Below, piece by piece: positions 6,001 through 9,000 of a stretch of 20,646 bases of DNA. The DNA is from a virus (Duplodnaviria; Heunggongvirae; Uroviricota; Caudoviricetes), in IMG/VR virus record IMGVR_UViG_2700989509_000029; one strand, 5' to 3'. Each line of letters starts with the position of its first letter. The stretch's first letter is position 1. The position numbers were made by a program.

Positions 6001-9000
6001 ATCCGGACGATTAAGCATGAGTACCACAACACGAAAATTTAAAACCATTATCACTGATACTGGTGCCAAAAAATTAGCTCAGGCAGCCGCGCCAGATGGT
6101 AATCCTGTCCGCCTGACTCACATGGCCGTGGGCGACGGTGGCGGCACGTTGCCCACACCAGACAGTAAGCAGACCCGTCTGGTGCATGAGGTGTGGCGAC
6201 ATACTGTTAATCGCGTCATCCTGGACGCAACACATCAGAACCGCATTATTGCGGAGCTGGTTATTCCTCCTGAAACGGGCGGATTCTGGATCCGGGAAAT
6301 TGGTGTATTTGATGAGCACGGCGATTTGATCGCGGTGGGCAATACTGCCGAAAGTTACAAGCCAACCGTTGCCGAAGGATCCGGACGTGCACAAACATTT
6401 CGCACCATTCTGACCGTATCCAGCACTGCCACCGTGGCGCTTACCGTGGATAACACCATGGTTATGGCCACAGTGGATTACGTGAATGACAAACTGAAAG
6501 AACATGAACAGTCACGACGTCACCCGGACGCCTCGCTGACCGCAAAAGGCTTTGTTCAACTCAGTAGCGCCACTAACAGCGATTCTGAAACGCTGGCTGC
6601 AACGCCGAAAGCGGTTAAGGCAGCGTATGACATGGCTAACGGAAAATATACCGCTCAGGACGCCACTACGGCACAAAAAGGGATAGTCCAGCTCAGCAGT
6701 GCAACCAACAGCACGTCTGAAACGCTGGCGGCAACATCAAATGCAGTAAAAGCTGCCTATGACAATGCTGAAAAACGTCTGCAGAAAGCTAAGAATGGTG
6801 AGGATATCTCTGACAAAGACACCTTTACGAAAAATATCGGTGCCTGCCGTGCATATAGTGCAGAGCTGAATATTGGTGGAGATAGTGAAGCATGGACAAC
6901 TGCGCAGTTGATTTTTTGGCTAGAGAGTCAGGGGGCATTTAACCATCCTTACTGGATGTGCAAAGGCTCATGGGCTTATGCAAGTAATAAGGTCATTACA
7001 GATACAGGTTGCGGAAATATTTGTCTTGCAGGTGCTGTTGTGGAAGTTATTGGCACCCGCGGCGCAATGACCATACGCATTACCACACCGAGTACATCCA
7101 GCGGTGAAGGCATCCCTAATGCTCAATTTACTTATATTAATCATGGTGATGCTTATGCTCCTGGCTGGCGAAGGGACTATAACTCCAGGAATAAGCCAAC
7201 AGCATCAGAGATCGGGGCGTTACCGTCAGATGGGACAGCAGTATCGTCAGTTAATCTGGCTTCAAAAGGTCGGGTGACCGCCCTGACAGATAATATGCAG
7301 GGGGCCACAGGTCTGGAGTTATACGAGGCGTATAACAACGGATATCCAACAGCGTATGGAAATATCATTCACCTGAAAGGGATGACAGCCGTTGGCGAAG
7401 GCGAATTACTCATCGGCTGGAGTGGTATAAGCGGTGCTCATGCTCCGGCATTTATTCGTTCACGACGGGATACGACCGACGCAAACTGGTCGCCGTGGGC
7501 GCAGCTTTACACCTCGGCTCATCCTCCTGAAAAGTTTTATCCAGTCGGTGCACCGATTCCGTGGCCATCAGATACCGTTCCGTCTGGTTATGCCCTGATG
7601 CAGGGGCAGACTTTTGACAAATCTGCATACCCGAAACTTGCAGTCGCTTATCCGTCAGGCGTGATCCCTGATATGCGTGGCTGGACTATCAAGGGCAAAC
7701 CTGCCAGTGGTCGTGCCGTATTGTCTCAGGAACAGGACGGCATTAAATCGCACACCCACAGCGCCAGCGCATCCAGTACTGATTTGGGGACGAAAACCAC
7801 ATCGTCGTTTGATTACGGTACTAAAACGACCAGTTCATTTGATTACGGCACAAAAACCACAAATAGCGCAGGAGCTCATTCACACAATATACCTGTTGGT
7901 CACACTGGCGCGGGGAATGGTGTATCAGCCGGTTATAACGCTGCGTTAGGTACTGGTACCACGTCGAGCGCAGGAGGGCATGCTCACAATGTATATATCG
8001 GTGCCCATAACCACACTATCGGCATTGGTGCTCATGCCCATTCTGTCATTATTGGTCCCCACGGACACACCATCACCGTTAATGCTACGGGGAACGCAGA
8101 AAACACCGTAAAAAACATCGCATTTAACTATATTGTGAGGCTTGCATAATGACATTCAGAATGAGTGAACAATCACGGACCATAAAAATTTATAATCTAC
8201 TGACCGGAACCAATGAGTTTATTGGTGAAGGTGATGCATACATTCCACCTCATACAGGTCTGCCTGCAAACAGTACCGATATTGCCCCGCCAGATATTCC
8301 GGCTGGCTTCGTGGCCGTTTTCAACAGTGATGAGGCATCGTGGCATCTCGTTGAAGACCATCGGGGTAAAACTGTTTATGACGTGGCATCAGGGGACTCG
8401 TTATTTATTTCTGAACTCGGTCCATTACCGGAAAATGTTACCTGGTTGTCGCCGTATGGAGAGTATCAGAAGTGGAACGGCACATCCTGGGTGAAAGATG
8501 CAGAAGCAGAAAAACTGTTTCGGATAAGGGAGGCGGAAGAAATAAAAAACAGCCTGATGCAGGTAGCCAGCGAGCATATTGCGCCACTTCAGGATGCCGT
8601 AGATTTGGATATTGCAACGGAGGAAGAGGCATCGTTACTGGCTGCATGGAAGACATACCGGGTATTGTTGAATCGTGTTAATACAGCGGTAGCAGCGGAT
8701 GTTGAGTGGCCAGTCGCCCCACAATAAAGAGAAAAAGCCATCGATTGAAATATAGATGGCTTTATGTACTCTATTTATACAATACAACACCGCTCTTTTT
8801 AGTTATATATGTGCAGTTCGATGGTATATCTTTATTTATAAAAGACATTGCACCTATTTTTACATTATCCCCAATTTTACGTGATAATCCAATGATGCAA
8901 CAATTAGCTCCGATATCAACGTTACTACCAATTTTTACTCTTGAACCAGGCATGTCACCATCTATCTGTCCAATGGTAGTATTCTGTCGTAACACCAGAT

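Follow-up and report, generated by a model that had tools for sequence, protein, structure and literature searches.

In gp37, the tail fibre protein of phage T4, the fibre tip comprises domain D10 (residues 811-881 and 1010-1026), a needle stem (882-931 and 960-1009) and a tip subdomain (932-959); seven irons are coordinated along the needle, and H929 and H931 are iron-binding (PMC6957217). Replacement of either of these two histidines by alanine abolishes plaque formation, and mutagenesis has shown that the tip subdomain binds lipopolysaccharide (LPS) and OmpC (PMC6957217). The side tail fibre (Stf) of phage lambda resembles gp37 and likewise binds OmpC (PMC12617516). Furthermore, more than 200 phage fibres that have in common a T4/lambda tip of about 215 residues, with an assembly protein encoded next to the fibre, have been published as a family (PMC9659904), and the counting of HxH (His-any residue-His) motifs in fibres as putative iron sites has become routine (PMC11705849). 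Here, we analyze a tail fibre gene in the IMG/VR virus record IMGVR_UViG_2700989509_000029, a stretch of 20,646 nucleotides assigned to Caudoviricetes and referred to below, in its entirety, as the window. We put at roughly 0.88 the probability that the C-terminal 204 residues of this fibre belong to the T4 gp37/lambda Stf family of receptor-binding tips, set on a P2-lineage base and accompanied by a lambda-type assembly chaperone, Tfa, and that by homology they would form a metal-bound needle.

The fibre has the features described for the published family: members are homologous only in about their last 215 residues, the fibres being unrelated elsewhere; they diverge chiefly around the T4 specificity region; and the assembly gene stands beside the fibre gene (PMC9659904). 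It does not differ from that family in kind; the copy in the window is found on a P2-family fibre. HxH needles, the gp37/Stf tip family and the Tfa/gp38 chaperones have all been described, and it is likewise established that P2, Mu, P1, lambda and T-even phages exchange fibre ends in mosaic fashion. The finding is thus already known.

Homology of the fibre tip to T4 gp37

When the fibre was compared with PDB sequences using phmmer, residues 507-710 matched residues 28-242 of the chain in 2XGF, the T4 gp37 tip, with an E-value of 1.1e-77, and the match extended to the C-terminus of both proteins. A global alignment to the T4 tip gives 70% identity over 203 aligned residues, which is distributed unevenly, with 85% at residues 507-578, 71% at 579-623, 29% at 624-654 and 73% at 655-710. 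Numbered back from residue 1026, gp37 contains seven HxH pairs, 883/885, 915/917, 929/931, 966/968, 980/982, 989/991 and 998/1000, and this numbering reproduces the iron-binding H929/H931 named previously (PMC6957217). Six of the seven have homologues in the window fibre: 883/885, 929/931, 966/968, 980/982, 989/991 and 998/1000 align, respectively, with histidines 579/581, 621/623, 655/657, 664/666, 673/675 and 682/684. The collar-like domain, needle stem and tip follow in the same order in both proteins, and the C-terminus is identical. The original prediction, made from the DNA before any database search, had proposed a T4 gp37-like tip; the comparison with 2XGF goes further and identifies the tip as a direct homologue of the crystallised one.

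Some features set the two tips apart. The tip subdomain of T4 has 28 residues and that of the window fibre 25. The seventh T4 pair, H915/H917, is located where the window fibre and lambda Stf have the second repeat of an FDYGTK unit; in a three-way alignment, this 30-bp duplication is common to lambda Stf and the window fibre, whereas T4 has a single copy with GHTHS after it. Aligned in this way, the needle of the window fibre would be T4-like with one rung fewer. The remainder of gp37 (1026 residues in total) is unrelated to the P2-type N-terminus of the window fibre. The chaperones differ as well: those of T4 are gp38 and gp57A, whereas the fibre gene of the window is followed by a lambda-type tfa.

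The same fold might hold zinc or some other divalent metal instead of iron, as does the single HxH site of T4 gp12. Octahedral sites made of six histidines are able to accept several metals, and the metal cannot be named from sequence alone. The collar domain of the window fibre (PF07484, residues 511-558, E-value 2.8e-11, above the curated Pfam cut-off) is common to gp12-type fibres, and 9CUY, the structure of a short tail fibre, is matched at residues 506-658 in the phmmer comparison with the PDB (E-value 1.5e-8). However, this match is weak, far weaker than the one to gp37, and both the 70% identity to the iron-containing gp37 needle and the near-identical surroundings of the motifs (GAHxH and IG.H.H) argue for iron, making another metal unlikely. 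The fibre was not assigned to the zinc fibres of the gp12 type: the 9CUY match is driven largely by the collar, and the gp37 match is better by about 70 orders of magnitude.

HxH motifs, their conservation and the variable tip

A scan of the whole protein found six HxH motifs in the 710-residue fibre (Table 1). Five strings, GAHSHN, GGHAHN, GAHNHT, GAHAHS and GPHGHT, had been listed in the original prediction, and all of them are present in the translation of the fibre open reading frame (ORF); the remark that the protein ends shortly after the motifs also holds, since 26 residues separate the last motif from the end of the fibre. The total of six, which had been assigned to positions 7870-8085, is right for the protein; that span contains five, and the remaining pair, His579/581, lies 120 nt upstream. 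By contrast, the proposed tandem units of about 21 bp did not hold up. The last four motifs are spaced 9 residues (27 nt) apart, with IGAHNHTIG, IGAHAHSVI and IGPHGHTIT following a more diverged AGGHAHNVY, and neither Tandem Repeats Finder nor the repeat finder detected a 21-bp tandem unit. The former found no tandem repeat at all over the HxH region, whose units are too diverged at the DNA level to be recognised as one. The sole array reported by Tandem Repeats Finder is the 30-bp duplication, present in 2.3 copies at 7793-7862.

It could be argued that the cluster of motifs is a compositional accident of a low-complexity tail rich in Gly, His and Thr and has no structural role. The region is indeed compositionally simple, and the lack of a DNA repeat detectable by Tandem Repeats Finder over the motifs would agree with such an origin. 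Shuffling speaks against it: 20000 shuffles of the whole protein gave on average 0.84 motifs compared with the six observed, which were reached in 3 of the 20000, and when the last 140 residues were shuffled, the mean was 1.10 and two shuffles reached six. Together with the end-to-end homology to a solved structure, 2XGF, and the near-total conservation of the histidines described below, these numbers effectively refute a chance origin, which we regard as next to impossible.

A search with the tip retrieved 1312 proteins at E ≤ 1e-5, and a database cluster with 343 members matches the tip sequence at 100% identity. The best 120 of the 1312, plus lambda Stf and T4 gp37, were aligned, yielding a set of 122 close relatives with identities of 63-100%. 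The 12 motif histidines are each kept in 121-122 of the 122 sequences, whereas the lone histidine outside the motifs, His629, varies and is His in just 20. The original prediction had named homologues without these histidines as a finding that would refute it; the alignment does not do so, each histidine being kept in at least 121 of the 122.

The family was further sampled by an exhaustive search through a set holding one representative per 50%-identity cluster, which returned 1691 clusters at E ≤ 0.001, of which 256 reached E ≤ 1e-30. Among the cluster representatives, the tip terminates fibres of 213 to 1599 residues. Five of the six HxH pairs are kept in 94-100% of 145 representatives, and 108 of the 145 end in YIVRLA. 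The spacing of the motifs is also constrained: the last three are exactly 9 residues apart in all 129 representatives with an intact C-terminus. The fourth motif from the end is found 9 residues upstream in 47 of these 129, which is the spacing of the window fibre, and 14 residues upstream in 46, which is the T4 spacing; another 22 have their next upstream motif at a distance of 34 residues, i.e. beyond the tip. The number of motifs per tip is mostly 5-8 and ranges from 2 to 10 across the family, six being the commonest number among the close relatives.

Variability is concentrated at residues 624-650, between the second and third motifs. At residues 627-646, the mean identity of the relatives to the residue of the window fibre is 0.28-0.29, as against 0.9 or more in the flanks. 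Residues 624-648 are presumed to be the receptor-contact surface. Moreover, a 45-nt direct repeat, 71% identical between its copies (7856-7900 and 7958-8002, + strand), brackets the hypervariable tip exactly, so its copies are possible crossover boxes for tip exchange. This raises the question of whether the HxH units are chiefly ‘His boxes’, that is, crossover points for swapping or duplicating tips, with metal binding being secondary, a view compatible with the metal needle. His boxes are said to have been reported as recombination sites in T-even gp37 by Tetart and colleagues in 1996; our literature search for the term found no paper containing it. The confinement of variability between the two boxes is in line with such a role, as are the family-wide variation in the number of HxH units and their spacing in discrete classes. 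However, recombination boxes need no invariance of both histidines of each pair while neighbouring residues change, which is the pattern seen in the 122 relatives, and the loss of T4 plaques upon alanine substitution of H929 or H931 (PMC6957217) also disagrees with a merely recombinational function. We therefore find it doubtful that recombination is the chief role of the motifs.

For the metal needle, the T4 structure suggests the following arrangement. Three chains would leave the collar-like domain, descend in extended conformation, build the small variable tip and ascend again, so that the needle would have six strands. Each HxH motif would contribute two imidazoles per chain, and the resulting six would coordinate a single metal ion located on the threefold axis, which in T4 is Fe2+. 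Six motifs thus predict six ions per fibre, one fewer than in T4 and two fewer than in lambda Stf. The ions would serve as structural rivets that hold the thin needle together and not as a receptor-binding surface. Contact with the receptor would be made by exposed loops of the tip, and host specificity would reside in the 25 residues at 624-648 between the second and third motifs. The lambda-type Tfa is expected to be necessary for folding and trimerisation of the needle. Trimerisation, metal binding, the kind of metal, the receptor and the dependence on Tfa are all inferred from homology, whereas the homology itself, the correspondence of the motifs and the conservation of their histidines, the position of the variable segment, the borders of the mosaic and the identity of the chaperone are shown by the sequence comparisons.

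A different function of the metal has been discussed for HxH-bearing fibres under the name ‘Ferrojan horse’ (PMC11705849), whereby fibre iron would mimic siderophore-bound iron to reach a receptor or would supply the host with iron. Yet the ions of the T4 needle are not exposed, because they lie on the axis inside it, coordinated by six histidines, and siderophore transporters are not the known receptors of the closest characterised relatives, which use OmpC and LPS (PMC6957217, PMC12617516). Nothing in the window bears on the idea, and we consider it very improbable.

Several observations weigh against a T4-like metal needle. The T4 pair H915/H917 has no counterpart in the window fibre, although its absence is within the usual family range of motif counts. 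Compared with T4, the stem is 4 residues shorter in the descending part and 5 shorter in the ascending part, and local packing must therefore differ. Among the distant representatives, positions 655 and 657 are His in 99-100 of 145. This lower score is due partly to an alignment shift and partly to a real class with three ascending motifs; it reflects discrete spacing classes (9 residues, 14 residues or no fourth ascending motif) and not random loss, which might have meant that the site is dispensable. A single-chain AlphaFold2 model of residues 492-710, based on a 43-sequence alignment, had a predicted local distance difference test (pLDDT) score of 52.9 and a predicted template modelling (pTM) score of 0.21. 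Such low confidence of a monomer is attributable to the intertwined trimer expected for this region, and the model was set aside as unusable. Finally, the metal could be other than iron.

Table 1. Features of the fibre gene and the adjacent tfa gene (window coordinates; aa, residues of the encoded protein)
Feature	Position (nt)	Strand	Basis
Tail fibre gene, P2 gene H position	6017-8149	+	ORF list; 710 aa + stop
P2-type N-terminal fibre domain, aa 6-153	6032-6475	+	Pfam PF12571, E 7.7e-54
Two Phage_fiber_2 repeats, aa about 173-254	6533-6778	+	Pfam PF03406, two stretches, E 1.6e-40
Mid-fibre domain common to phage Mu S/S' fibre, aa 249-410	6761-7246	+	phmmer against PDB 8JU3
Collar-like domain, first part, aa 507-577 (= T4 gp37 D10 811-881)	7535-7747	+	Pfam and T4 alignment
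Needle stem, descending strand, aa 578-623, with HxH 1 and HxH 2	7748-7885	+	Aligned to T4 882-931
HxH 1, KSHTHS, His579/581	7751-7759	+	
30-bp tandem duplication x 2.3 within descending strand	7793-7862	+	Tandem Repeats Finder, repeat family, three-way alignment
HxH 2, GAHSHN, His621/623	7877-7885	+	
Hypervariable tip subdomain, aa 624-648 (= T4 932-959)	7886-7960	+	Low identity to T4 and relatives
Needle stem, ascending strand, aa 649-693, with HxH 3-6 at 9-aa period	7961-8095	+	
HxH 3, GGHAHN, His655/657	7979-7987	+	
HxH 4, GAHNHT, His664/666	8006-8014	+	
HxH 5, GAHAHS, His673/675	8033-8041	+	
HxH 6, GPHGHT, His682/684	8060-8068	+	
C-terminal return into collar-like domain, aa 694-710 (= T4 1010-1026)	8096-8146	+	Identical to T4 gp37 C-terminus
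Tail fibre assembly chaperone Tfa, 192 aa	8149-8727	+	Pfam PF02413, E 7e-39

Mosaic architecture of the fibre gene

The window is a P2-family (Xuanwuvirus/P88-like) prophage in which baseplate genes are followed by the fibre gene and then by the assembly gene. It shares with P2 and P88 this prophage context, the gene order J-I-H-G and the N-terminal 254 residues of the fibre. BLASTP places the similarity to the P88 fibre at residues 1-254 (93% identity) and that to P2 gpH at residues 7-254 (71%), and found none to either protein after residue 254; the fibre is therefore P2-type in its N-terminal third only. At the DNA level, the first 584 nt of the gene are 96-97% identical to P88 and other Xuanwuvirus and 69% identical to P2 gene H. 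The P2-type N-terminus proposed in the original prediction is thus confirmed by both these identities and the Pfam match (PF12571, E-value 7.7e-54), and the matched domain presumably attaches the fibre to the baseplate. HxH motifs are absent from P2 gpH and the P88 fibre, both of which end in another domain (...YINGTWYNVAQV), and the window fibre does not have the C-terminal receptor-binding region of the P2 gpH type.

The distal part of the fibre has a different affiliation. The Stf of lambdoid phage PhiR26_1 is 78% identical to residues 171-710, and Tfa, the start codon of whose gene overlaps the stop codon of the fibre gene, shares 88% identity over 191 residues with lambda Tfa (orf-194). 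The graft therefore consists of the whole distal fibre plus its chaperone and not of the tip alone. In other words, the notion of a tip grafted onto a P2-type base is correct as to the graft, but the grafted piece, residues 171-710 together with tfa, is larger than the tip. Since similarity to P2/P88 ends at residue 254 and similarity to Stf begins at residue 171, the Phage_fiber_2 repeats are the likely recombination joint. The gene would accordingly be a mosaic of residues 1-254 from the P2/P88 lineage and residues 171-710 with tfa from the lambdoid Stf lineage, joined within repeats common to both. Judged by sequence similarity, the proximate relatives of the grafted block are lambdoid side tail fibres and not T4. 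A further component is evident in the middle of the fibre, where residues 249-410 are nearly identical to part of the S/S' fibre of phage Mu (8JU3; domain E-value 1.9e-80, phmmer, PDB). Segments related to P2/P88, to Mu and to lambda/T4 are therefore combined in one fibre. The distal receptor-binding end of the Mu fibre, however, is unlike the HxH needle, with no match in the phmmer comparison.

Overall, the closest relatives are lambda Stf (the orf-314 part) with Tfa (orf-194) and the Stf proteins of PhiR26_1 and mEp460. Lambda Stf resembles the window fibre in its duplicated FDYGTK unit and its first motif, KSHTHS, but has 8 HxH motifs and a far longer tip insert. The PhiR26_1 Stf also has a longer tip and carries descending-strand HxH motifs where the window fibre has its second FDYGTK repeat. 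In addition, the N-termini of lambdoid Stf proteins join a siphovirus tail, whereas that of the window fibre joins a P2 baseplate.

The same combination is present in another prophage. The fibre gene has the same length as, and is 98.9% identical in nucleotide sequence to, a gene annotated as ‘phage tail protein’ in the P2-family prophage of Escherichia coli O26:H11 11368, where it follows the baseplate J and I genes, and the 98.9% identity spans the fibre-plus-chaperone stretch. Related tip and tfa DNA is far more widespread: of 5426 complete E. coli genomes, 4441 to 4652 contain a match, and among the matched sites are prophage loci annotated as stfR/tfaR and tfaQ.

NCBIfam has no model matching either the fibre or Tfa. 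The practical value of the comparison lies in annotation: a suitable label for the protein is P2-type fibre with a lambda-Stf/T4-gp37-type tip, and its specificity determinant can be placed at residues 624-648. Furthermore, the joint at the Phage_fiber_2 repeats would mark a site that tolerates fibre swaps, which may be useful for engineering the host range of P2-based particles.

Neighbouring genes

Directly after tfa, in antisense orientation and before the convergent tail genes, lies a gene for a hexapeptide-repeat acetyltransferase (8771-9376, - strand) with a low GC content of 37-41%. None of its best NCBIfam matches (EpsC, CysE and WcaB) comes close to the curated cut-off, and PADLOC gave no match. 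In the phage collection, the acetyltransferase is found in three records only, these being two P1-like phages, JL22 and vB_EcoM-Ro157c2YLVW. The P1-like phages encode it with 91% amino acid identity and at the same relative position, and they also carry the closest copy (95% nucleotide identity) of the tip and tfa. At least 80% of the stretch comprising tip, tfa and acetyltransferase is present in 265 of the 5426 complete E. coli genomes. The three genes thus travel jointly between phages of unrelated type, and the enzyme may be one that modifies a receptor. One could speculate that they constitute a mobile three-gene cassette in which the enzyme modifies the surface polysaccharide read by the short-tip variant with six HxH motifs, although we think this quite unlikely. 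If it were the case, a lysogen would be protected from, or invisible to, phages with the same tip.

Further tail genes occupy 9500-15075 on the minus strand and converge on the fibre operon. They include a tail protein ORF (9500-9994), the tape measure gene (10001-12844) and, as far as 15075, several smaller ORFs. Their positions correspond to those of the GpE-family, tube and sheath genes of the O26 prophage, gene order alone having been compared. In P2, both operons are transcribed in the same direction.

Just after a gpD-like gene (15211-16332), an island of 34-35% GC contains an ORF of 356 residues with a PIN_12 domain (16505-17575, + strand), which has no PADLOC or NCBIfam match. At about the same position, the O26:H11 prophage has HxsA and HxsC genes; the presence of different genes in the two prophages makes this look like a variable cargo site. 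Finally, an N6/N4 DNA methyltransferase is encoded at 18630-19421 on the plus strand (PF01555, E-value 3e-33), and its best PADLOC model is a Type II methyltransferase (E-value 4e-64).

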